A stretch of DNA of 41,608 bases from Patescibacteria group bacterium (GTDB lineage: Bacteria; Patescibacteriota; UBA1384; GWA2-35-9; JBASTP01): the NCBI GenBank assembly GCA_049274945.1, contig JBASTP010000012.1:1-41608 (forward strand), in the 5' to 3' direction. Under the pieces are notes generated by a model. The model did no database searches, was not told where the DNA came from, and worked only from the letters and a program-made list of their open reading frames with translations. The translations under genes and the position numbers were made by a program. This document shows positions 1,755 to 41,608 of the stretch, piece by piece. Numbering within the stretch: the stretch's first letter is position 1; each line of letters begins with the position of its first letter.

Positions 1755-1827
1755 GCGCCTATAGCTCAAGGGATAGAGCGAAGGGTTTCTAACCCTTAGG
1801 TTGCAGGTTCGAATCCTGCTAGGCGCA
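1755..1827 (+). tRNA. tRNA-Arg (anticodon TCT)
   Basis: Cloverleaf: acceptor gcgccta/taggcgc, D arm gctcaagggatagagc, anticodon stem aaggg/ccctt with loop tttctaa, T arm gcagg-ttcgaat-cctgc. Confidence 0.8.
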
Positions 1828-1837
1828 CAAGCAACAA

Positions 1838-1990
1838 CGCAGGATTCGAACGCGAAAGGGGGTCGGGGAAAACAGAAATCTGTGTTTTCCCCGTGGGCGG
1901 AAGCCCACGAAACCGAGGGGTTTCGTGAAGCAAATCTGCCGTAGCGAAGGCCTCCAGTAGCTTAGGCAGATTTGCTTGTGAGATTCCCTG
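1838..1990 (+). ncRNA. copy 1 of a tRNA-adjacent structured repeat (core about 147 nt, 1842-1988)
   Basis: Near-identical to 6740-6886 and the reverse complement of 41414-41560. Contains hairpins GGGGAAAACA..TGTTTTCCCC, GTGGGC-GGAA-GCCCAC, CACGAAACC..GGTTTCGTG and GCAAATCTGCC..GGCAGATTTGC. The 3' end (gattccctgccgggctcac) resembles the tRNA-Arg 3' end (gaatcctgctaggcgcac). Confidence 0.55.
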
Positions 1991-3576: not shown

Positions 3577-4059
3577 ATGCCTTGGTTGAACTGCCGTATT
3601 TGTCAAAAGGAATTTTATACAAAGCCTAGGCTTATCAACAGGGGCTGGGGTAAGTATTGCTCGGTGGTCTGTAAGGCAAAGTCACAGTTTAATGGAAGCC
3701 ACTTTAATTGCGAGTATTGTGGTAAGTGGGTATATAGGCCTCCAGGAGAAATTCGAAAATCCCAAAGTCAAAGGTTTTTTTGCTCTCGAGCTTGCCATTG
3801 TGGTTGGCAGAATAAGCACTCACGAGCGAGGGAGAATTCACCTAACTGGAAAGGTGGTGGAAGTGTTTACCGTTCCGTTCTTGAAAAATCGGAAGCTCTT
3901 AAGCAGTGTAATTGTTGTGGTACCAGTGATATGCGAGTGCTTATTGTCCATCACAAGGATAGAAATAGGCAAAACAGCGCACTGGAAAACCTATTGTGGT
4001 TATGCCATAATTGCCACCATCTAGTCCACCATTATGGTGGCTGTAGCTCAGTCAGTTAG
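3577..4059 (+). CDS. HNH endonuclease (N-terminal zinc-ribbon plus NWKGG plus HNH motif)
   Basis: 160 aa. Contains CRIC..C, NWKGGGSVYRS, and HHKDRNRQNSALENLLWLCHNCHHLVHH, the canonical HNH signature. The 3' end overlaps the first 24 nt of tRNA-His. Confidence 0.75.
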   Translation: MPWLNCRICQKEFYTKPRLINRGWGKYCSVVCKAKSQFNGSHFNCEYCGKWVYRPPGEIRKSQSQRFFCSRACHCGWQNKHSRARENSPNWKGGGSVYRSVLEKSEALKQCNCCGTSDMRVLIVHHKDRNRQNSALENLLWLCHNCHHLVHHYGGCSSVS

Positions 4060-4113
4060 AGCGCCAGGTTGTGGCCCTGGAGGTCGAGGGTGCAAATCCC
4101 TCCAGTCACCCCA
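4036..4113 (+). tRNA. tRNA-His (anticodon GTG) with encoded G-1 and CCA
   Basis: G-1 at 4036 and acceptor gtggctg/cagtcac. Anticodon stem ccagg/cctgg with loop ttgtggc. T arm gaggg-tgcaaat-ccctc. Discriminator C then CCA. Confidence 0.8.
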
Positions 4114-6553: not shown

Positions 6554-6582
6554 CCCCTCCTGAGGCGGGGGCTATTTTCTTG
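6554..6582 (+). terminator. rho-independent terminator after uppS
   Basis: CCCCTCC-tga-GGCGGGG (one G-U pair) followed by gctattttcttg. Confidence 0.55.
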
Positions 6583-6619
6583 ATTAAGAGGGTTTTTCGC
6601 GATAAAATTCATGACGAAT

Positions 6620-6691
6620 GGGCCTGTAGCTCAGGGGTAGAGCAGTTGCCTCTTAAGCAATTTGTCGCGGGTTCGAATCCCGCCAGGCCCT
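6620..6691 (+). tRNA. tRNA-Lys (anticodon CTT)
   Basis: Acceptor gggcctg/caggccc. D arm gctcaggggtagagc. Anticodon loop ctcttaa. T arm gcggg-ttcgaat-cccgc. Confidence 0.8.
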
Positions 6692-6692
6692 C

Positions 6693-6887
6693 GTACAAAA
6701 AGACTCGCCTTGCGCGAGTTCTTTTTGTACTGGTATATGGGATTCGAACGCGAAAGGGGGTCGGGGAAAACAGAAATCTGTGTTTTCCCCGTGCGCGGAA
6801 GCCCACGAAACCGAGGGGTTTCGTGAAGCAAATCTGCCGTAGCGAAGGCCTCCAGTAGCTTAGGCAGATTTGCTGGTGAGATTCCCG
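6693..6887 (+). ncRNA. copy 2 of the tRNA-adjacent structured repeat (leader hairpin 6693-6730 plus core 6740-6886)
   Basis: Hairpin caaaaagactcgcc-ttgc-gcgagttctttttg followed by the core. The element ends gagattcccgccaggccctc, a direct repeat of the tRNA-Lys 3' end gaatcccgccaggccctc at 6675-6692. Confidence 0.55.
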
Positions 6888-6897
6888 CCAGGCCCTC

Positions 6898-7644
6898 ATG
6901 GAGAATCAAAAAAATATCCAGCAATCTGCCGCTGAAAATATCGCCAAGGTAACAAAAGCCGGGGCACAGGCTGTTACTGTTTACGAAATATTCAAATCAA
7001 TAATTTGGATTGTTGTTTCTATACCGATTGCAATCTATCTAATCTCTTTCGGAGTTCCGTGGTATTTTATTATTCCGATTCCCATTATCGGGATAGTATT
7101 TGCTCTACTTAGTATGATTTCGATTCGCCGAATATCTGCAGTCAATTTGGAGCATAGCAATCTTACGGCTCCCCAGGTAAGTGTGCCCATTGAACCTAAT
7201 GAGAAGGTCGTCGATTACATTCCGGGGATAATAAAAACAGGTTTTGGCCTCCGTGGTTATGAGGTGCTGGGCGCTGGGAAAATTCTCGATTCGGAGAACC
7301 TGATGCTATTAACCAATGCGTCGGTGCTATTTGTCACGATTCCGCTGCCGGGCGGCGATAAAATTATTCAAGCTATCGATATACCGATGTGGCAATGGTT
7401 GGCAGCCAGTAAGGAAATTGATCAAAAAGCCAAGGATCTTATTTCATCATATTCACTCATGCAAATGCAGCAGCTGAATATGATTCGGGCAGGAGTTGCG
7501 TTGCAAACATTGGACAGGGTGAAGATAAATAATATTTTCGGGAGTATTACGTTCGTCACAAAGACCGGGGAAAAATACTCATACTCTATTAGAAATAAAG
7601 AAAATAGAGAAAAAGCAAAAAATTTGTTCGCCCAGTTTTTATAA
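6898..7644 (+). CDS. hypothetical membrane protein (AT-rich island)
   Basis: 248 aa with two or three TM helices near the N-terminus. Codon usage and GC differ from the flanking backbone. Confidence 0.5.
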   Translation: MENQKNIQQSAAENIAKVTKAGAQAVTVYEIFKSIIWIVVSIPIAIYLISFGVPWYFIIPIPIIGIVFALLSMISIRRISAVNLEHSNLTAPQVSVPIEPNEKVVDYIPGIIKTGFGLRGYEVLGAGKILDSENLMLLTNASVLFVTIPLPGGDKIIQAIDIPMWQWLAASKEIDQKAKDLISSYSLMQMQQLNMIRAGVALQTLDRVKINNIFGSITFVTKTGEKYSYSIRNKENREKAKNLFAQFL

Positions 7645-7893
7645 CATCAGCAGCGTACCGTTACCACCTTCCTCGTTCCACCACGATGGTGGAAGTACAG
7701 TTTGACCTGCGAGATTTCCATCAAGGCTCTCCACACTTCGCTAAAGTTTCGTCTAGTGAGCAATCGTTACTTTTATACTAGTTAGGTCTCATGAGAAAAG
7801 TGATAGTCTTAAGATAAGAACGCTGTGAAACTATAAAAAACAGAAAAATTAGGTTTCTTGATTTTTTCAATAAGGGAGACTAAAATTTAGACA

Positions 7894-8349
7894 ATGATTT
7901 TAGCACAAAAAAAACAACTCGAATCTTGGTACCACATTGCACGTGTGCTTACAATTTTTGCATTATTTTTTTCTGTGGGCGGGTTGTCTTTCTTCAAAAA
8001 TACTGAAGGTGCAATAATTTTTGTGGTAAGTCGGGTTGCTATTTTTTGGCCATTGTATCTAATTGGAACTCTTGAATTAAAAAATAGACTTGAACTTCTT
8101 CAGAACCAAAAAGAAATAAAAGAGAGATCGAAAAATTGGGCTGCGATCATCGGTTTTATTTTAGGGATCACTGCTGTTCTTTTCGGATTTGGTACTATAC
8201 CATCGGTTTTGATCAGTGCTTACGGCCTTACCAAACATAACCTCGGTAAAGGAGGTAAATGGTATGCCATAGCTGGTTTAATACTAAGCCTTTCGACATT
8301 GTTTATTGTTGGTGGAATTTTAGGAAAAACTCTGATCAACACAAAATAA
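7894..8349 (+). CDS. hypothetical small membrane protein (AT-rich island)
   Basis: 151 aa with four predicted TM segments. Confidence 0.45.
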   Translation: MILAQKKQLESWYHIARVLTIFALFFSVGGLSFFKNTEGAIIFVVSRVAIFWPLYLIGTLELKNRLELLQNQKEIKERSKNWAAIIGFILGITAVLFGFGTIPSVLISAYGLTKHNLGKGGKWYAIAGLILSLSTLFIVGGILGKTLINTK

Positions 8350-8350
8350 A

Positions 8351-8725
8351 TCAAGGGTCACGTAATATTCCTTTGAGACGATCAGTTACAGTCTTGAAGC
8401 ATATCGAAGTTTTATAATTTTTTTCCTCGACTGCTGCGTAGAGCAAACATGGGATATAATATCCAGAACTCGAAATAACAAACCATAATCGCCCCCCTTT
8501 TGATGGTGGAGTGATGGGAGTCGTTATTTTTATCCTGTCCTTACAAACTATATACCCCGGTCGGTTAGCTATCTGGCAAGATAAGCGTCCAAGTTCCCCG
8601 TATTGATTTGAGTGCGCGCCAAAATAAATTTCTAAATCCTTTATTAGTGATTTAAATCTTTTAAGTCGCCTAATATCATGTTCTATCAAGCTATTGCCGT
8701 AATGTTTTAGGTTTCGTCCTTCCAT
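8351..8725 (-). CDS. hypothetical basic protein, candidate toxin partner of the upstream Panacea-domain gene
   Basis: 124-aa ORF immediately downstream of the DUF4065 gene on the same strand, overlapping it by 35 nt. No recognisable domain. Confidence 0.3.
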   Translation of the reverse strand: MEGRNLKHYGNSLIEHDIRRLKRFKSLIKDLEIYFGAHSNQYGELGRLSCQIANRPGYIVCKDRIKITTPITPPSKGGRLWFVISSSGYYIPCLLYAAVEEKNYKTSICFKTVTDRLKGILRDP

Positions 8726-9308
8726 CCCGACTCAACTTTATATCAACTCGATTCATGAGTTCAGCGAATTGGTTTGAACCGAATAATTTAGTTGCTTCCG
8801 GATTCTCTAAATCCAAATCATCTTCCTGATCTTCGATATAATGAGCCAAATCATAATCAATTATCTCGCCCGTATTTTTAGTAGCCAGATAAGGGAAATC
8901 GGAATGCGATATTTCGCTGATCTCTCGAGGGTAAAGACCCTTGTAGGCTTCATTAATTGTATTAATAGTCAACAACTCTGATTCAGAAAAATGTTCACTA
9001 GGTTTTATGTCTGGATTAGCAATTGCAAAGTTTTTTTGGATGGCACCATAATAATTAGAACTAATTAAACAAGTAATTAAGCCTTCTCTTTCCATCTCTT
9101 TAAGAATTTTTGGTAACTCCATGATTGTTGGCCCATAATTGTTCTTACGATAGGTAAAGCCAGTAATAGCTTGATTAGTTTTTTGGAAGTATCGGAAATC
9201 GCAGAAATATAAAAGTTTCTGCAGTTTTGTTTCAGTTAATTTATCGTTATTATATTTCTGAAAAATATAGAGAATTAAGTTTCTGAGTTTATTTTTATTA
9301 ATCCTCAT
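8691..9308 (-). CDS. Panacea (DUF4065) domain protein, PanA/SocA-like antitoxin
   Basis: 205 aa. KLQKLLYFCDFRYFQKTNQAITGFTYRKNNYGPTIMELPKIL matches the Panacea core (LQKLLYF ... F.Y..YGP). Confidence 0.6.
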   Translation of the reverse strand: MRINKNKLRNLILYIFQKYNNDKLTETKLQKLLYFCDFRYFQKTNQAITGFTYRKNNYGPTIMELPKILKEMEREGLITCLISSNYYGAIQKNFAIANPDIKPSEHFSESELLTINTINEAYKGLYPREISEISHSDFPYLATKNTGEIIDYDLAHYIEDQEDDLDLENPEATKLFGSNQFAELMNRVDIKLSRDGRTKPKTLRQ

Positions 9309-9491
9309 TGTTAGTCCTCATTCCTTTCCCCAAGTATACAAGCAAATATCAAATTATAGCAAGCTTAGGCAGCAAACATATGAATATTTTCTATTCTAAG
9401 GTCATTTGTTGATAATTCCTGCAATTTGCCCGATCATTTACCTACTAAAAATTGAACCCACCCAACTCTATCCCTAAACGCCACCTTTAGT

Positions 9492-30667: not shown

Positions 30668-30745
30668 CAGGGCGCGCGTAGGGCCGACGCAAGGTCGGCC
30701 TCCCGACTCCCGACGAGAGGTCGGGACGTCGGGACTCAGGGGTAG
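30668..30745. repeat. CCCGAC/GTCGGG double-hairpin repeat (family member c)
   Basis: gcgcgcgtagGGCCGACgcaagGTCGGCCtCCCGACtCCCGACgagagGTCGGGAcGTCGGGActcag. Confidence 0.6.
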
Positions 30746-30786
30746 CCCTGCGCCTAGCAGATTAAGGCGTCGGAAAACATCGATCA

Positions 30787-31053
30787 ATGAAACCAAGTGT
30801 TTATATTTTGTATTCTAGAGCATCAAATAAATACTATATTGGAAGTACGGCAAATATCGAGAACAGGTTGAAACATCATTTGGGAGGTTATACTCCCTCC
30901 ACTCAAAAAATGGCTGGGGTAGCACTAAAATTCAATCAGGAATACGATAGCTTAAAACAAGCAAGAGATATTGAAAAGCGATTGAAAAAATTAAAAAGGC
31001 GAGATTACATTGAAAAAATAATTCGAGACGGTGCGATACATATGCATGTGTAG
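30787..31053 (+). CDS. GIY-YIG nuclease-domain protein (small, stand-alone)
   Basis: 88 aa. VYILYSRASNKYYIGSTANIENRLKHH matches the GIY-YIG core. The 3' end overlaps the tRNA-Val 5' end. Confidence 0.65.
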   Translation: MKPSVYILYSRASNKYYIGSTANIENRLKHHLGGYTPSTQKMAGVALKFNQEYDSLKQARDIEKRLKKLKRRDYIEKIIRDGAIHMHV

Positions 31054-31115
31054 CTCAGGGGTAGAGCGTCTCTTTGACGTAGAGAAGGCCAGTGGTTCGA
31101 TTCCACTCACATGCA
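31044..31115 (+). tRNA. tRNA-Val (anticodon GAC)
   Basis: Acceptor gcatgtg/cacatgc. D arm gctcaggggtagagc. Anticodon stem tctct/agaga with loop ttgacgt. T arm agtgg-ttcgatt-ccact. Confidence 0.75.
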
Positions 31116-31174
31116 CATTCGTGGTAGCCCCGACGTCCGACGAGTCGGGGTGCCGACTGAAACGTCGGCAAGCA
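31116..31174. repeat. CCCGAC/GTCGGG hairpin repeat (family member d), inserted between tRNA-Val and its duplicated 3' fragment
   Basis: gtagCCCCGACgtccgacgagtcgGGGTGCCGACtgaaacGTCGGCAagca. Confidence 0.5.
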
Positions 31175-31222
31175 GTCTCTTTGACGTAGAGAGGGTCAGA
31201 GGTTCGATTCCTCTCGCGCGCA
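31175..31222 (+). other. tRNA-Val 3' fragment (anticodon arm, T arm and acceptor 3' strand, no 5' half), att-like duplication
   Basis: gtctctttgacgtagagagggtcagaggttcgattcctctcgcgcgca parallels 31068-31115 with compensatory T-stem changes. No matching 5' acceptor strand (gcgcgcg) or D arm upstream. Confidence 0.55.
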
Positions 31223-31239
31223 CAAAATCGCCACTAATT

Positions 31240-37884: not shown

Positions 37885-38256
37885 TTATATCTTTCTGAGT
37901 AACAAATGGGAGATCTTTTCAAAATCATCAACATTGCGAGTGAGTAAGTGAGAACCGGTAAAAATGGCAGTGGCTGCGATCACACTGTCAGCGAGTTCAA
38001 TTGTATGTTGTTGTCGTAAGTAGGCTGCAATTCTTGCAATCCTTGAGTCCAATGGGATGACCGAGACAATTGCTAAAAAATCGTTGATCTTATGTATTTC
38101 GCTGTCGGTCAAATTTTTGAATGATAACAGTTCTAGTTCTGTAATTGTGGACGCGTAAAAGGTAGTCTGGGTTCTAAAAAGCTCGTCAATTATTTTTGCT
38201 ACTGGTACCTCACCTTTTAGATAATAAATGATTGAATTGGTATCGAGCGTATACAC
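37885..38256 (-). CDS. vapC: PIN-domain toxin VapC
   Basis: 123 aa. N-terminal LDTN, then the conserved acidic residues of the PIN fold. Sits 15 nt after a small upstream ORF. Confidence 0.75.
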   Translation of the reverse strand: MYTLDTNSIIYYLKGEVPVAKIIDELFRTQTTFYASTITELELLSFKNLTDSEIHKINDFLAIVSVIPLDSRIARIAAYLRQQHTIELADSVIAATAIFTGSHLLTRNVDDFEKISHLLLRKI

Positions 38257-38271
38257 AGTTGTTTAATAGCT

Positions 38272-38448
38272 CTAAAGTGACGGCAGTTTTCTCAGCCAAC
38301 CTCGGCGCATCAATTCGAGCTCTTTGATCGGATCTGGCTTTCGATTTTTCCAAATCCCTTTAAGACGCTTCAAAATAACCAGTCGCCGCTTTGGATCAGC
38401 GGCATACATAAGGTCTAACGGTCGATTATTTCTGGTCTTTGTTCGCAT
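38272..38448 (-). CDS. vapB: VapB-like antitoxin candidate (58 aa), unannotated
   Basis: ATG complement of 38446-38448. MRTKTRNNRPLDLMYAADPKRRLVILKRLKGIWKNRKPDPIKELELMRRGWLRKLPSL. Immediately upstream of vapC on the same strand. Confidence 0.4.
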   Translation of the reverse strand: MRTKTRNNRPLDLMYAADPKRRLVILKRLKGIWKNRKPDPIKELELMRRGWLRKLPSL

Positions 38449-38515
38449 GTAATAATATTCTCATACTCCTGACTTTTTGTCAATTTCCGTGGTAAACAAG
38501 TATCAACTGTCGATT

Positions 38516-38582
38516 TGAACTACACTAGATTTAATCGGAACCGGTTGGTTGAGGAGTTGAGGGCGTGGCAGCAGGTTTACAA
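38516..38582. repeat. cassette-boundary repeat B
   Basis: gaactacacTAGATTTAATCGGAACCGGTTGGTTGAGGAGTTGAGGGCGTGGCAGCAGG. Confidence 0.55.
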
Positions 38583-38639
38583 GCTTGTTAGAGTGATCGA
38601 ACCAGTGTCACTGTGATAGATAAAAGGGATTACGGAACT

Positions 38640-39026
38640 CTATGGTTTTAAACCCTTAGCTTCTAAGCATAGCTTAAAATAACTCTCATAGTCTGGCCTG
38701 AGATACAAATCTTTCTTTGCAGCCTCTTTATACTCTGATGAGAGCTCTGCTTTAGTTTTTAGTAATTCTATGGCTCCCTTTTCTGCAACTTCCGCACATT
38801 TAATCCTAGTCTCCTGTTCTGATAATTTCGCGTGTGTTTCACTCGTTTCTGCATCGATCTTGCGTTGTTGCTCATTCTGTTTGATCGAAAGTTCTTGTTG
38901 CCTTATGTCTGACCATTTTCCTATGGCGTAGATACCAACAATAACAATAGCGAGGGCCACACTGATATAAGGTACAAGTTTCCGATTCTCCTTGAGCGTT
39001 TTTTCGATCAATTTATACCAATCCAT
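38640..39026 (-). CDS. hypothetical TM-anchored coiled-coil protein
   Basis: 128 aa, one TM helix, Glu/Lys-rich coiled-coil, AT-rich codon usage. Confidence 0.4.
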   Translation of the reverse strand: MDWYKLIEKTLKENRKLVPYISVALAIVIVGIYAIGKWSDIRQQELSIKQNEQQRKIDAETSETHAKLSEQETRIKCAEVAEKGAIELLKTKAELSSEYKEAAKKDLYLRPDYESYFKLCLEAKGLKP

Positions 39027-39135
39027 AACTTGTAATTATAACTCCAATAATTTAGATGTGGCATTTTTCTCCTTTATATTTGGTGAAACTTTAATATCCT
39101 CATAATTCTCTAAATCTATTTCCTTATCTAATATT

Positions 39136-39729
39136 TTAAGATTCTTCTTGTTTTTGTTTTTCTAATTCAAGGCTAAATAAATTTCCATCGTTTTGGTAAT
39201 AATATTTCCAGCCATCACCAATCCCATATTTAGCCGCCGTTTTTTTATCAGGTTTTTTCATTTTTTCTAGTCTCTCGAAATAATCTAGGGGGATTTTTTG
39301 CCAGTCTTTACCTAGCAAAGATTTGAATTTCTTTTCAACTTCTTCCTTCACAACTGAGGGCTCTTTGCTAATTTCAAAAGCATAGTCGTCCATATCAACA
39401 GCAAGCATTACTCTAGCGTGCTTGAGATCTCCTAGAGCCTTAGCATATCTATACCAATCCTTAGCTATCTCTAGCGCTTGATCAGGGACATGTGCAAACC
39501 TTTGTTTTAATCGAAGATAATTTATCTCCATAGCATCAAAGGCGTTCTGGACGTCAATGAAATGCGGAGAATCAAAATGATTAAGCGAAAAAATTATATT
39601 TTTTTGACGGTAAATGCCTTGCTCGATATCCTCCACAGTAGCGGGGCGATTAACGGCCGAGGAACTACTCGACTTGTATATCAAATAGATGATTACTGCG
39701 CCTATAAGTATCCAGAGAGGCATGTACAT
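39136..39729 (-). CDS. hypothetical TM-anchored protein
   Basis: 197 aa with N-terminal TM helix and no recognisable domain. Confidence 0.4.
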   Translation of the reverse strand: MYMPLWILIGAVIIYLIYKSSSSSAVNRPATVEDIEQGIYRQKNIIFSLNHFDSPHFIDVQNAFDAMEINYLRLKQRFAHVPDQALEIAKDWYRYAKALGDLKHARVMLAVDMDDYAFEISKEPSVVKEEVEKKFKSLLGKDWQKIPLDYFERLEKMKKPDKKTAAKYGIGDGWKYYYQNDGNLFSLELEKQKQEES

Positions 39730-39859
39730 AAAATTACTTTATGAAATAATTAATATCTTTGTTATAAAGTTTAGCAAATTTTTTCATCTCCAAAACGTCC
39801 AGTCGGTATTCACCAGATTCTACTCTTGAAATATATGACTGGGGTCGTCTGTGTTGCAT

Positions 39860-39915
39860 GGACTATCTTAGATTTAATTGGGAACGGCTGATCAGAAAAT
39901 TGACTGCCACCTCGA
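39860..39915. repeat. cassette-boundary repeat C (5' half matches A and B), at the 3' end of the HEPN-like gene
   Basis: ggactatctTAGATTTAATTGGGAACGGCTGatcagaaaattgactgccacc. Confidence 0.45.
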
Positions 39916-39924
39916 GTTAAGTAT

Positions 39925-41301
39925 CTAAACTAGGATAGGTTTAACTAACAACATTAATTTTCCTAATTGTAGATTGGCAGAATCGTCAATACAAGCGTAA
40001 TCTATTTGCTCTATAAAACTGTTCTTGTCTATCTTAAGAACTACCATTATTACTATCAATTTTCTTAAATATTCGAGGGTGTTTAATAAAAGATTCTTAA
40101 TATCACCATATCTTGAGTTCAACTTTCTAAATACATTTGGTTTCAACCGGCTGCCATGGGCAAATGTACTCCTTGCAACATAGGCATCATAGAGACACTT
40201 ACGAATCTGACGTGGATTCTCACCCAGAAAAGACATTATCTTCGACAACCTCATGCCTAATTTATATGACAACTCTTTCGTATCCTCGAGTATTAGTGCC
40301 TCTAATCCCATAACTGCACCTGCAATCCGTCCTTCTATAACGTTGTGACGCATGAGGGTATCGCTATAATGAGCGTAAGCAATACTAATATGGTCCACGT
40401 TTTGATCACTTGCCGATCCGTATAAATTGACCGGTAGTGTTAGATCCAACTTTTTCCAAAATTTTCTTAGTTTCTGTTCATCCATTCTATCTATTACACC
40501 TATTTCCGTTGCAACTTCTCGACTTCCAGATTTCATTGTCCCTCGGCTTAAAAAGTCGAGTATAGAATCAGAATACATTTGATAGGATACATATTTTACA
40601 CTGGCTACCTTAAAGAGCCTTAACATTACAATTAGCTTTTCCACTCGTTTTTGTATTTCGTTTGCTCGATCTGTTGGAAGCTCAACAGTAGCAATAGCCG
40701 AAATGTCACCCAGCATATAATTCTGTAGACTAAAGCGATAGTAAGGCACCTCTTTTTCCAAATCGTCGCTTTGTGTTTGACGAATTATAATGCCTTTTAC
40801 AGGCCTTATTTTTTTTGGCTTTAATACAATACCCTGTAACTCCACCTGGGCTCCAGATTTAAAACGTAAGTTTGACAATTCGCTAATAAACTGTACTACA
40901 AACTTAGCTGAAGCAGTTTTCGCCTTCCTTGGGTTGTCAAAATGATGTTTCACTACTACTCCTAGCAAACTATCAATATCTCGTTTTACTGTATCTTTTC
41001 TTCCTGGGTAAGCTACTAATAATTCATTAACGGAAATTTTGTATTCACTTACTTGATGAACTTCTCGTAAGGCTTGATTAGTAGCTCGAAACCAGACTTT
41101 TTTAGTAGTATACTCTCCGTCCGCAGAGGGATTTTCGACGCCGCGGTCTCCATAATTAAAATGCCTAAGTTTCCAGTGGAAGTAGGTTTCGAAGTCTGGG
41201 AGAAATTTTTTTTCCACTATACCGTTTTGAACAATAGTTCCAGCTCTGGTAACGAGTAGGTTCAATTTATCGGATAGCTGTTGATTTTTTCTAGTAATCA
41301 T
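39925..41301 (-). CDS. large hypothetical protein with C-terminal HEPN-like Rx4H motif (ApeA/Abi-like candidate defence nuclease)
   Basis: 458 aa. C-terminal ...YDAYVARSTFAHGS... gives R-x4-H. Overall architecture (novel N-terminal region plus C-terminal HEPN) matches ApeA-type proteins. AT-rich island. Confidence 0.35.
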   Translation of the reverse strand: MITRKNQQLSDKLNLLVTRAGTIVQNGIVEKKFLPDFETYFHWKLRHFNYGDRGVENPSADGEYTTKKVWFRATNQALREVHQVSEYKISVNELLVAYPGRKDTVKRDIDSLLGVVVKHHFDNPRKAKTASAKFVVQFISELSNLRFKSGAQVELQGIVLKPKKIRPVKGIIIRQTQSDDLEKEVPYYRFSLQNYMLGDISAIATVELPTDRANEIQKRVEKLIVMLRLFKVASVKYVSYQMYSDSILDFLSRGTMKSGSREVATEIGVIDRMDEQKLRKFWKKLDLTLPVNLYGSASDQNVDHISIAYAHYSDTLMRHNVIEGRIAGAVMGLEALILEDTKELSYKLGMRLSKIMSFLGENPRQIRKCLYDAYVARSTFAHGSRLKPNVFRKLNSRYGDIKNLLLNTLEYLRKLIVIMVVLKIDKNSFIEQIDYACIDDSANLQLGKLMLLVKPILV

Positions 41302-41413
41302 AAACGAGAGACTTTGTCCTCGTTTAGTCTGACATAAATTGTAGTTTCACTCAAGGATATATGTGGAGAGGGAATTATATTGGCTAATTGAGGTGTTAAG
41401 TGAAGAAGACCCA

Positions 41414-41608
41414 AGGGGAAGCGAACAAGTAAATCTGCCTAAGCTCTGGAGACCTCGCTACGGCAGATTTACTTCACGAAACTCTTCCGTTTCGTGGGCT
41501 TCCGCCTACGGGGAAAACACAGATTTCTGTTTTCCCCGACCCCCTTTCGCGTTCGATTCCCCTTGCCCTAATCACGAAAAGAACTCGCATAAAGCGAGTC
41601 TTTCGTGA
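41414..41608 (-). ncRNA. copy 3 of the tRNA-adjacent structured repeat (minus strand, diverged, with leader hairpin), running to the window end
   Basis: The reverse complement aligns with copies 1 and 2. Stem changes are compensatory: gcaaatctgcc/ggcagatttgc becomes gtaaatctgcc/ggcagatttac, and the leader hairpin caaaaag..ctttttg becomes cacgaaag..cttttcgtg. Confidence 0.5.

Follow-up and report, generated by a model that had tools for sequence, protein, structure and literature searches.

Integrase-borne tRNA islands and CIME-type elements are flanked by a direct repeat of the tRNA 3' end, keep a fixed orientation and restore the tRNA, with the enzyme supplied in trans. Terminal inverted repeats are the normal substrate of casposases and DDE transposases. 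In the attP(+) site of the CTX phage, two inverted dif-like sites pair on one strand, and the integron attC site is likewise folded; structure rather than sequence is conserved in such sites, on which a host or distant recombinase acts. Site-specific retroelements carry the target sequence at the ends of their RNA. Patescibacteria have very small genomes with few known transposable elements, and group I introns are frequent in their tRNA genes. Published introns of this type interrupt the anticodon loop, at position 35/36 or elsewhere in it (PMC13011429). The casposase of A. boonei generates a 15-bp duplication overlapping the 3' end of tRNA-Pro and needs the adjacent 18 bp that code for the T-loop (PMC5137440). 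Here we describe a repeat found next to tRNA genes in a Patescibacteria contig, of which a 41,608-nt stretch was analysed as a whole (the window). Its copies probably represent a family of insertion elements, non-coding and non-autonomous, that integrate at tRNA 3' ends in Patescibacteria.

Copies of the element and their parts

Three copies lie within these 41 kb, at the places given in the original prediction. Copies 1 and 2, which sit at different tRNAs, are near-identical over 148 structured columns (144/146, 98.6%), and copy 3 is 86–88% identical to both, which agrees with its earlier description as diverged. A 21-mer of the core matched the window three times, against 0.01 matches expected in shuffled sequence. 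Copies 1 and 2 were correctly placed immediately 3' of tRNA-Arg(TCT) and tRNA-Lys. Copy 3 lies on the minus strand and reaches the contig end, its tRNA being beyond the contig. As an assembly effect, the window contig breaks off inside this copy. The insert consists of five parts, namely a terminator-like hairpin (H), a short variable spacer, an antisense arm (X'), a core and a right end. The core is conserved and made of three hairpins around a junction, and the right end is a degenerate T-loop-like octamer. These parts are located as follows.

1755–1828, + strand: tRNA-Arg(TCT), target of copy 1; its positions ~53–65 (GTTCGAATCCTGC) and the arm at 1839–1851 are exactly complementary
1829–1838, + strand: short spacer of copy 1, in which the terminator hairpin is missing
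1839–1851, + strand: antisense arm X' of copy 1, GCAGGATTCGAAC, 13/13 complementary to the T-loop and T-stem 3' strand of tRNA-Arg
1852–1977, + strand: core of copy 1, with the junction GCGAAAGGGGGTC followed by P2, P3/P4 and P5
1865–1892, 1893–1927 and 1928–1977, + strand: hairpins P2, P3/P4 and the long hairpin P5 of copy 1
1978–2002, + strand: right end of copy 1, T-loop-like GTGAGATT and then the degenerate repeat C-CCTGC-CGGGCTCACCA
6620–6692, + strand: tRNA-Lys(CTT), target of copy 2, with the left copy of the 15-nt duplication at 6678–6692
6693–6730, + strand: terminator-like hairpin H of copy 2 (GTACAAAAAGACTCG...CGAGTTCTTTTTGTAC)
6731–6738, + strand: variable spacer of copy 2
6739–6749, + strand: antisense arm X' of copy 2, GGGATTCGAAC, 11/11 complementary to tRNA-Lys
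6750–6875, + strand: core of copy 2, junction and hairpins P2 to P5
6876–6897, + strand: right end of copy 2, T-loop-like GTGAGATT and then the right duplication copy TCCCGCCAGGCCCTC (6883–6897)
41404–41426, minus strand: right end of copy 3, GTTCGCTT and CCCCTTGGGTCTTC
41427–41550, minus strand: core of copy 3
41551–41565, minus strand: antisense arm of copy 3, CAAGGGGAATCGAAC
41551–41608, minus strand: arm, spacer and hairpin H of copy 3, with H cut by the contig end

Five further copies, one of them decayed, were found in other Patescibacteria contigs, giving n = 8 from five genomes, which are Berkelbacteria-like and Paceibacteria. Seven of the eight stand directly 3' of a tRNA gene and share its orientation; the adjacent tRNAs are Arg-TCT, Lys-CTT (twice), Ser-CGA, Phe-GAA, Asp-GTC and Gly-TCC, that is, six species. 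The same order of tRNA and tRNA element (tRNA, hairpin, antisense arm, core, 15–17 nt direct repeat) is repeated in independent genomes. The element is present at a minority of tRNAs, which differ between genomes, and the orthologous tRNA-Lys, tRNA-Arg(TCT) and tRNA-Asp genes of relatives carry no element downstream. The decayed copy is truncated and lies 3' of tRNA-Gly on contig L005. Exact-word scans of genomes and metagenomes returned four loci only, which underestimates the family because the junction is not invariant; the variants AGGAAG/AGGAAAG occur in L016 and L005.

When the whole window was searched against Rfam 15, only eight tRNAs passed the gathering threshold. For copy 2 and its flanks at an E-value limit of 10, the best non-tRNA matches scored 11–22 bits against thresholds of 47–80, and most sub-threshold matches in this region fell on the tRNA or on hairpin H. 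The earlier statement that no known non-coding RNA family matches is borne out by Rfam, and the element belongs to no described family. A tmRNA or permuted tmRNA was considered, as the arm GGATTCGAAC resembles the tmRNA 5' motif, but ARAGORN finds none, the Rfam match of 11 bits (threshold 47) falls on the tRNA and hairpin, and there is no tag reading frame. YrlA/Y RNA, HEARO/omega RNA and self-cleaving ribozymes gave no Rfam match. A group I intron was rejected, the tRNAs being uninterrupted (75 and 73 bits) and RF00028 giving no match.

Six-frame translation of the core gave no match in the protein collection. No recombinase, transposase, reverse transcriptase or Cas1 was detected among the 40 window ORFs scanned or among the scanned ORFs of L002–L004, and the Pfam lists of the other element-bearing or relative contigs contain no such enzyme except an IS200-type Y1 transposase in L005, whose flanking hairpins are unrelated to the element. 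A phage or plasmid origin found no BLAST match in 50,697 phage and 72,556 plasmid records, and six pattern scans of viral contigs did not detect the element. A shared cargo gene was also rejected: the ORFs following copies 2 and 3 are mutually unrelated, and they belong to no family in Pfam, NCBIfam, PHROGs or PDB.

Insert limits, target duplication and antisense arm

An empty site (contig L005) and a filled site (contig L016) were compared between two Berkelbacteria MAGs. Their tRNA-Lys genes are 73/73 identical and the downstream flanks 85/107 identical, and the L016 insert is 191 nt long and bounded by two perfect copies of CCCCGGGCGGTCCTC. This pair settles that the element is a discrete insertion. 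The insert measures 191 nt where the limits are exactly readable, and the copies range from about 160 to 210 nt. The proposal of a novel small mobile element is well supported by this insert with its 15-nt duplication and by the six tRNA species, together with the absence from relatives' orthologous tRNA loci and the one decayed copy.

Exact direct repeats of 15–17 nt were identified in window copy 2, L001, L004 and L016. They span the end of the T-loop, the T-stem 3' strand, the acceptor 3' strand and 1–3 bases past the tRNA; the duplicated stretch covers the tRNA 3' end, and the tRNA gene is therefore intact. The element had been said to end with a near-copy of the host tRNA 3' end. This holds for tRNA-Lys, whose repeat is exact over 15 nt (TCCCGCCAGGCCCTC, 6678–6692 / 6883–6897) and, as stated earlier, 17/18, but not for tRNA-Arg, with which only the 5-nt T-stem CCTGC is common. 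It had been proposed to check whether every copy abuts a tRNA 3' end with a duplication. Seven of the eight copies have this position; the right-hand repeat is degenerate in copy 1 and L002, with no tRNA match beyond the T-stem. Outside the T-stem part, the right end of copy 1 is built like the 3' end of a different, CCA-encoding tRNA.

No terminal inverted repeats are present at the insert limits set by the filled/empty pair. The left ends (AACGAAACAG..., GTACAAAAAG..., ATAACAGG...) are unlike the reverse complement of the right ends (...GTGAGATG, ...GTGAGATT, ...GTTCGATTG), and the sole inverted repeat in the element is the one involving the internal arm X'. On the element side, the bases that precede the right-hand repeat show no complementarity to the T-stem. 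For both tRNAs, no further copy of the 3' end that could bound a larger island was found downstream. As named beforehand, a match to a known IS or MITE bearing terminal inverted repeats and tRNA-unrelated duplications would speak against the prediction; the element is not of this kind.

The arm is exactly antisense to tRNA positions ~53–65, and its matches to the adjacent tRNA are 13/13, 11/11, 13/13, 13/13, 14/14 and 10/11. The reported complementarity of the 5' end to the T-loop is hence correct, and it extends to tRNA-specific T-stem bases. A disrupted or split second tRNA was rejected as the source of this arm, which is a perfect complement of the 3' T-stem strand. That it was not copied from the 5' T-stem strand is shown by two informative G·U positions (L002, L004), and it has one base more, as only an inverted copy should have. 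Fold-back duplication into a long perfect palindrome was also rejected, as every copy, copy 3 possibly excepted, is missing the acceptor-strand complement upstream of the arm.

In the reading that we prefer, integration would be performed by an enzyme supplied in trans, for which the nearest precedent is a Cas1-type casposase. The T-loop palindrome would serve as a landmark, the two strands would be cut ~15 bp apart, and gap repair of this staggered cut would yield the target duplication. The hairpin brought by the insert would serve as a terminator for the tRNA. Against this reading, no candidate enzyme was found in the window or in the contigs examined, the ends are not inverted repeats, unlike the normal substrates of casposases and DDE transposases, and two right-hand repeats (copy 1 and L002) match their tRNA no further than the T-stem. 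Simple cut-and-paste does not predict a target-matched internal arm, for which template switching may be an explanation. Such switching, within the quasi-palindrome that arm and T-arm form, would rewrite the arm to match the neighbouring tRNA; alternatively, the arm would be used in target pairing.

The 15–17-nt repeat can equally fit a Campbell-type identity block, and the filled/empty pair cannot separate the two. It is possible, though unlikely, that the insert is a miniature integrative element of barely more than an attachment site, on which a site-specific recombinase, of the tyrosine or another type and supplied by the host or from a gene elsewhere, acts in a Campbell-type manner. The repeat would then be the att identity block, and the present 3' end of the tRNA and its terminator would derive from the element, consistent with a terminator that arrives with the tRNA 3' end. 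The arm would pair with the element's own site copy in a single-stranded circle to form a duplex mimic of the T-arm region, as CTX phage does with its two inverted dif-like sites and integron cassettes do with attC; by our derivation, the order of direct repeat, internal inverted copy and direct repeat fits an exchange between a folded single strand and a duplex. However, nothing would supply single-stranded circles for an element of 200 nt that has no replication genes, and the closing stem of 13–15 bp is smaller than a normal recombinase core site. The asymmetric ends and fixed orientation agree with an attachment site, as do a right end (L*) like a diverged T-loop, resembling an attP that mimics attB over ~23 nt, and the strand-specific G·T fold described below with neither a promoter nor an element-encoded enzyme. 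Yet the tRNA-proximal junction has no inverted binding arms around a 6–8-bp overlap, and no integrase was seen in any contig examined. A distinct module would also be needed for each of the six tRNA species, although the cores at two tRNAs are 98.6% identical.

Conserved fold of the + strand

The antisense arm and the right end with its duplicated T-stem bases can pair, closing the fold. Paired cells amount to 92% in this model, compared with 32–54% when partners are slid by 1–3 columns, and six base pairs exhibit double changes. The compensatory change reported for copy 3, from GCAAATCTGCC/GGCAGATTTGC to GTAAATCTGCC/GGCAGATTTAC, was found, and the leader hairpin flanks indeed changed together in that copy; H of copy 2 is homologous to H of copy 3 and L016, with compensatory changes among them. 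The aligned pairs include four G·T cells but not one A·C cell, which points to the + strand, the tRNA-sense one. The covariation statistics, drawn from eight copies of five genomes, are weak, and the structure-aware alignment leans towards the model. P2 and P5 vary in length, and the junction is conserved and purine-rich, as are conserved the loops GGAA/GGAG and GGAAGA. As judged from the aligned copies, the covarying pairs and the strand bias of the G·T pairs show that a single-stranded + strand fold is under selection. The claim of selection on RNA structure is thereby partly supported. A consensus scan located a terminator-like hairpin between the tRNA and core, recognised no promoter-like site after it, and there is no consistent 3' terminator of the element. 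The conserved fold could act as single-stranded DNA rather than RNA, because the core lies behind this hairpin without a recognisable promoter. For a trans-supplied enzyme, the + strand fold would be a recognition feature in a single-stranded intermediate, which may be DNA or RNA.

The same fold raises the question of a structured non-coding RNA gene with a tRNA-tied cellular role, its spread being secondary, which appears quite doubtful. Such an RNA would be co-transcribed with the tRNA by polymerase passing its terminator; the 5' arm would pair with the T-arm and the 3' tail would repeat the acceptor 3' strand. It might act in quality control, as a decoy for tRNA-end enzymes or as a regulator of the downstream gene. 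Covariation, conserved loops and a purine-rich junction with peripheral stems of variable length are as in structured RNAs, and every G·T pair falls on the tRNA-sense strand. In addition, the arm pairs with the real tRNA better than with its own right-end partner, and when transcripts spanning tRNA and element are folded by prediction, both tRNA-derived arms are used. However, a strong terminator-like hairpin stands ahead of the core with no promoter-like site following, a consistent 3' terminator is missing, and the acceptor-like tail is unconserved in two copies. The distribution is also at odds with a cellular role: a minority of tRNAs is occupied, the tRNAs differ between genomes, close relatives do not have the element, and one copy is decaying.

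It seems improbable that the internal arm is a programmable guide, such that arm and sense repeat would pair with both DNA strands of the T-arm and direct a trans-acting integrase, with the arm re-templated for each target. If true, it would be a new guide-dependent insertion system in minimal-genome bacteria. Guided self-insertion, in which a transcript or single strand would direct a recombinase or reverse transcriptase to tRNA genes with the arm against one T-arm DNA strand and the sense repeat against the other, in the manner of IS110/IS1111 bridge/seek RNAs or site-specific retroelements, is very improbable: two target-matched segments for opposite strands of the same 13-bp site do flank a conserved scaffold, near-identical cores are retargeted, and a small RNA gene spreading on an IS110 transposase (PMC12288879) and bridge RNAs (PMC11208160) are known, but IS110 duplicates only a 2-nt core and has its guides in internal loops rather than at RNA ends, group II introns are reported absent from Patescibacteria (PMC13011429), neither a reverse transcriptase or DEDD recombinase nearby nor a promoter was found, and a guide already matching its target leaves its change between targets unexplained.

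Comparison with known systems

Integration at tRNA ends by a trans-supplied enzyme, our preferred reading, would mean that a compact non-coding element spreads among the tRNA genes of Patescibacteria without damaging them. The arm that tracks each target tRNA would either record template switching within a quasi-palindrome or point to targeting guided by a nucleic acid. For annotation, the element entails assembly breaks at tRNA genes, spurious ORFs and partial "tRNA" fragments.

MITEs and REP/REPIN are likewise short, non-coding, multi-copy, hairpin-rich and non-autonomous, and MITEs also have a target duplication. The present element has the direct target-site duplication of a MITE but not the terminal inverted repeats; its duplication is much longer (15–17 bp) and strictly at tRNA ends, and its junction and loops are conserved while the stems covary. 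An IS200/IS605 PATE or REP/RAYT element was rejected, as those insert without target duplication, beside a short tetra- or pentanucleotide and with subterminal hairpins that a Y1 transposase recognises, whereas 15–17 nt are duplicated here. The bridge/seek RNAs of IS110/IS1111 and the stand-alone ssr9 module of ISPpu9 resemble the element as structured RNAs of 100–200 nt on a mobile unit; they are complementary to both target strands, and an RNA-only module can spread on a trans transposase (PMC11208160; PMC12288879). The element does not match these RNAs, and its guide-like segments are terminal rather than in internal loops. A bridge/seek RNA was rejected, as no DEDD/serine recombinase gene was seen and the duplication is 15–17 nt, not 2 nt.

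In CTX attP(+) and attC, the recombination site exists only when two inverted segments of one strand pair, as would also be so for the element in the attachment-site reading. The element differs in having no dif- or attC-like consensus, in lying outside an integron array and in targeting the tRNA T-arm, and it is only ~200 nt long without a replication module. The tRNA islands and CIME-type elements share with it the direct repeat at both junctions, the intact tRNA at one end and the fixed orientation. They differ in their kilobase size and protein-binding arms, compared with a covarying hairpin fold, and they contain no internal inverted target copy and are normally specific to one tRNA.

Casposons are 8–20 kb long, encode Cas1 and a polymerase and have terminal inverted repeats, whereas the element is ~190 nt, non-coding and asymmetric at its ends; in the window and contigs examined, the tRNA-end duplication beside a T-loop palindrome was found, and terminal inverted repeats and Cas1 were not. 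The offset also differs, as the element's duplication starts directly after the T-loop and that of A. boonei shares no more than the final 5 bp with its tRNA. Once found, the element's enzyme could add a link to the casposon/CRISPR story or reveal a different integrase. The element provides a clean natural case of a 15–17-bp duplication measured from the T-loop, a target logic it shares with casposons and with CRISPR spacer integration. Like casposons and artificial mini-casposons, it inserts at tRNA 3' ends with a direct duplication (14–15 bp in those systems) that leaves the tRNA intact, and a T-loop-coding palindrome, such as the casposase requires upstream, also adjoins the element's target (PMC5137440; PMC4779613).

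Copies and anatomy of the tRNA-adjacent element

Three copies of a non-coding element of about 190 nt were located in the window where the original prediction had placed them (1838–1990 and 6693–6887 on the plus strand, 41414–41608 on the minus strand), and their MAFFT alignment spans approximately 165 columns. The window contains three matches to a 21-mer of the core, where shuffled sequences predict 0.01. Structure-aware alignment gave 144 of 146 identical positions between copies 1 and 2 (98.6% for the cores) and 86–88% identity of copy 3 to both. Eight tRNAs were detected in the window by ARAGORN and Rfam, two of which precede a copy:

1755–1828, plus strand, tRNA-Arg(TCT); copy 1 begins 11 nt beyond its end
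6620–6692, plus strand, tRNA-Lys(CTT); copy 2 begins directly at its end

The contig end (41608) falls within the leader hairpin of copy 3 and truncates it, and in L008, a relative with 79% UppS identity, the contig end at 1338 falls within the T-loop of tRNA-Lys. Short-read assemblies are probably broken by the element or by the tRNA ends that it duplicates.

By exact-word scans, the motif was also found in a Paceibacterota MAG contig (L001, to which the metagenome contig L003 is identical) as well as in two contigs from a single metagenome (L002 and L004). A covariance model constructed from five copies and run on 140 kb of sequence, the window plus 16 fetched loci, added two copies not picked up by the word scans, both on Berkelbacteria MAG contigs: L016 (123 bits) and a decayed, truncated copy in L005 (53 bits). 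Wherever the upstream sequence is visible, a copy is immediately preceded by a tRNA gene of the same orientation. The majority of tRNAs in the element-bearing contigs examined carry no copy.

Table. Adjoining tRNA, match of arm X' to that tRNA, and exact direct repeat of each copy
Window copy 1; Arg-TCT; 13/13; degenerate
Window copy 2; Lys-CTT; 11/11; 15 nt
L016; Lys-CTT; 10/11 (T-loop of this tRNA unusual); 15–17 nt
L001; Ser-CGA; 13/13; 16 nt
L002; Phe-GAA; 13/13; degenerate
L004; Asp-GTC; 14/14; 15 nt
L005 remnant; Gly-TCC

The tRNA preceding the element is intact. From 1–3 nt past it extends a long hairpin, H, with an A-tract/T-tract outer stem. The H hairpins of copy 2, copy 3, and L016 are homologous and show compensatory changes; copy 1 has none. 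A consensus scan called the window H a terminator on both strands, of which the T-run was consistently better on the tRNA strand as judged by eye. A non-conserved spacer of 8–15 nt leads to the arm X', the exact reverse complement of the adjoining tRNA from the G before the T-loop to the end of the T-stem 3' strand. The core begins with a purine-rich junction (GCGAAAGGGGGTC; AGGAA(A/G)GGGGG(G)TC in L016 and L005), followed by hairpin P2 (GGGGAAAAC.../...GTTTTCCCC) and a small P3, whose loop is GGAA/GGAG. Next come P4, whose loop is GGAAGA or CGAGGG, and P5. The P5 of the window copies and of L016 has 13 bp and a distal domain; that of L002 and L004 has just 4 bp and 22 nt. In the L001 core, P2 is longer and the middle is rearranged. 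The right end L* is a T-loop-like octamer (GTTCGATT, GTTCGCTT, GTGAGATT, or GTGAGATG) that is the element's own sequence and does not track the local tRNA. In predicted folds, a closing stem, P1, can arise between X' on one side and L* with the T-stem bases of the repeat on the other.

The direct repeat spans from the T-loop end to 1–3 nt beyond the tRNA discriminator. The proposal that the element ends in a near-copy of the host tRNA 3' end was correct for copy 2, where 15 nt are repeated exactly, and did not hold for copy 1, which is degenerate past the 5-nt T-stem part, as is L002. The right repeat of copy 1 resembles the end of a different, CCA-encoding tRNA. That of L002 (848–869) reads GATTCCGCCCC GATTCCGCCCG, with a tandem GATTCCGCCC in which the element-end/target junction is duplicated; this may be the trace of a further insertion or of an excision.

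Rfam gave nothing for the element, in agreement with the view that it belongs to no known ncRNA family, and a tmRNA was rejected as ARAGORN detected none. Group I introns are common in patescibacterial tRNAs and interrupt the anticodon loop (PMC13011429); this identity was also rejected, as the element lies 3' of an intact tRNA. No match was obtained in the phage collection, the plasmid collection, or the viral contigs, and no description was found in Rfam or the literature searched.

Filled and empty tRNA-Lys sites and neighboring features

The element is a real feature and a mobile one, as the original prediction had offered as one of two possibilities. The tRNA-Lys(CTT) genes of L005 and L016, from two related Berkelbacteria MAGs, are identical at 73 of 73 positions, and their downstream flanks, in which a DEAD-box helicase gene has its promoter and its beginning, at 85 of 107. 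In L005, the empty site, this flank directly adjoins the tRNA. The L016 site is filled: two perfect copies of CCCCGGGCGGTCCTC enclose 191 nt made up of H, spacer, X', core, and L*. Mobility is also supported by relatives free of the element: it is absent after tRNA-Lys in L007, after tRNA-Arg(TCT) in L005, and after tRNA-Asp in L010, L016, and L017. The decayed L005 copy, furthermore, has the appearance of a dead mobile element. The tRNA-Lys copies of the window and L016 each carry a perfect repeat of their own tRNA 3' end, and these ends differ at several positions, indicating separate insertions rather than one inherited event.

Neither an integrase, transposase, Cas1, nor reverse transcriptase was found among the 40 ORFs scanned in the window or adjoining the copies outside it, whose neighbors are ordinary housekeeping genes. 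Within the limits drawn by the filled/empty pair, the insert has no terminal inverted repeats.

Other features were observed near the tRNAs and the copies:

L004 2083–2159, L016 10547–10620, L017 3856–3929: tRNA-Asp between atpC and a PPIase gene, on opposite strands, the element-bearing one (L004) being inverted relative to the element-free ones (L016 and L017)
30670–30744: 5' part of an old tRNA-Val(GAC) split in two (30670–31228; acceptor GCGCGCG/CGCGCGC), GGGCGCGCGTAG...CTCAGGGGTAG, interrupted by a 52-nt double hairpin
30787–31053: small GIY-YIG endonuclease ORF between the fragments
31044–31116: intact, different tRNA-Val(GAC) between the fragments, alongside another double hairpin
about 31172–31228: 3' part of the split tRNA-Val(GAC), anticodon arm to end
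30682–30733 and 31126–31170: double hairpins inside and beside the tRNA-Val fragments
L002 546–600 and 886–940: double hairpins about 20 nt upstream of tRNA-Phe and tRNA-Val
3577–4059: HNH endonuclease ORF (PHROG HNH family, E = 1e-16), its 3' end overlapping the start of tRNA-His (4037–4113)
6898–9400: block after copy 2 with a 248-aa ORF without family, a TauE-like fragment, a 124-aa ORF, and a SocA/Panacea antitoxin-domain gene
37885–41301: toxin- or defense-like genes beside copy 3, namely a PIN-domain gene (37885–38256) and the ORF of the next entry
39925–41301: 458-aa ORF with an R-x4-H motif (RSTFAH) near the C-terminus
L005 6732–7385: IS200-type Y1 transposase gene with flanking GTAACACC...GGTGTTAC hairpins

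The tRNA-Val locus looks like a homing-endonuclease cassette that carried in its own tRNA. Free-standing endonuclease genes abut tRNAs twice in the window, at tRNA-Val and at tRNA-His. The double hairpins, each about 50 nt long and based on GCCCCGAC...GTCGGGG and CCGAC...GTCGG, represent a second small repeat family. Block 6898–9400 is missing from the syntenic Berkelbacteria contigs, in which tRNA-Lys is directly followed by the DEAD-box helicase, and may be an island adjoining the element. The 458-aa ORF gave no match in Pfam, NCBIfam, PHROGs, or PDB; the R-x4-H motif is a feature of HEPN domains. The Y1 transposase gene of L005 lies just upstream of tRNA-Arg(TCT), the same tRNA that bears copy 1 in the window, and its hairpins are unrelated to the element.

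Probable selection on the fold

In a six-copy structure-aware alignment, 92% of cells were paired, against 32–54% when the partners were slid by 1–3 columns. Both sides changed together in six pairs, of which P4 holds three, P5 two, and P1 one, and the covariation score was reached by none of 500 column shuffles; the MAFFT alignment behaved similarly. The alignment has four wobble cells, each of them G·T when read on the tRNA-sense strand, and no A·C cell, indicating that the fold belongs to the plus strand. With five genomes only and an alignment leaning towards the model, this evidence for a selected fold is suggestive rather than conclusive. Folding was strongly non-random under RNA as well as DNA energy models: copy 2 gave z = −7.1 as RNA and −7.2 as DNA on the plus strand and −7.0 as RNA on the minus strand, with weaker values (between −2.4 and −3.7) for L001, L002, and L004.

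The prediction of selection on RNA structure is partly supported: covariation and strand-specific G·T pairs speak for a single-stranded fold of the plus strand, and not for RNA over single-stranded DNA. The core is located behind the terminator-like H, and a σ70-type scan that found the tRNA-Lys promoter (6580–6608) detected no promoter-like site between H and the core; a consistent terminator 3' of the element was not found either. A single-stranded DNA intermediate would fit the fold equally well. In predicted minimum-energy folds of the read-through tRNA and element (window 6620–6907 and its equivalents in L001, L004, and L016), the cloverleaf is lost: the T-arm is invaded by X', and the downstream repeat captures the 5' acceptor strand of the tRNA. 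If read-through occurs, such folding would be harmful, and a terminator would then be useful.

The matching arm and the mode of integration

Although X' lies within the insert, it matches the local tRNA even between copies 1 and 2, with their 98.6% identical cores, and it tracks the GAAT or GATT loop variant of the tRNA, not its partner L*. Three explanations can be offered. X' and the tRNA T-arm make up a quasi-palindrome, within which X' may have been rewritten by template switching, an established mutational route; X' may be produced during insertion; or it may be a guide under selection, with the cores homogenized via gene conversion.

The element is a discrete, oriented insert with a 15–17-bp duplication that begins right after the T-loop and leaves the tRNA intact. 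An enzyme acting in trans would take the T-loop palindrome as its landmark and cut the strands approximately 15 bp apart. The main rival is site-specific recombination, in which the direct repeat is an att identity block and X', as an internal inverted copy, could pair with the element's own site in a single-stranded circle; a worked-through single-strand exchange yields exactly the observed order of repeat, inverted copy, and repeat. The filled/empty pair is compatible with both models and does not separate them.

For integration by a trans-acting enzyme, the closest documented case is the casposase of A. boonei: its 15-bp duplication overlaps the tRNA-Pro 3' end, and it requires the adjoining 18 bp encoding the T-loop (PMC5137440); 14-bp duplications are likewise reported for M. 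mazei casposons at tRNA-Leu (PMC4779613). Unlike casposons, the element lacks terminal inverted repeats, and Cas1 was not seen in the window or beside the other copies. Its kind, a small non-autonomous element targeting tRNA ends, is already known; what is new is the build, in which the ends are asymmetric, the core covaries, and the element carries a terminator of its own and an internal target-matching arm.
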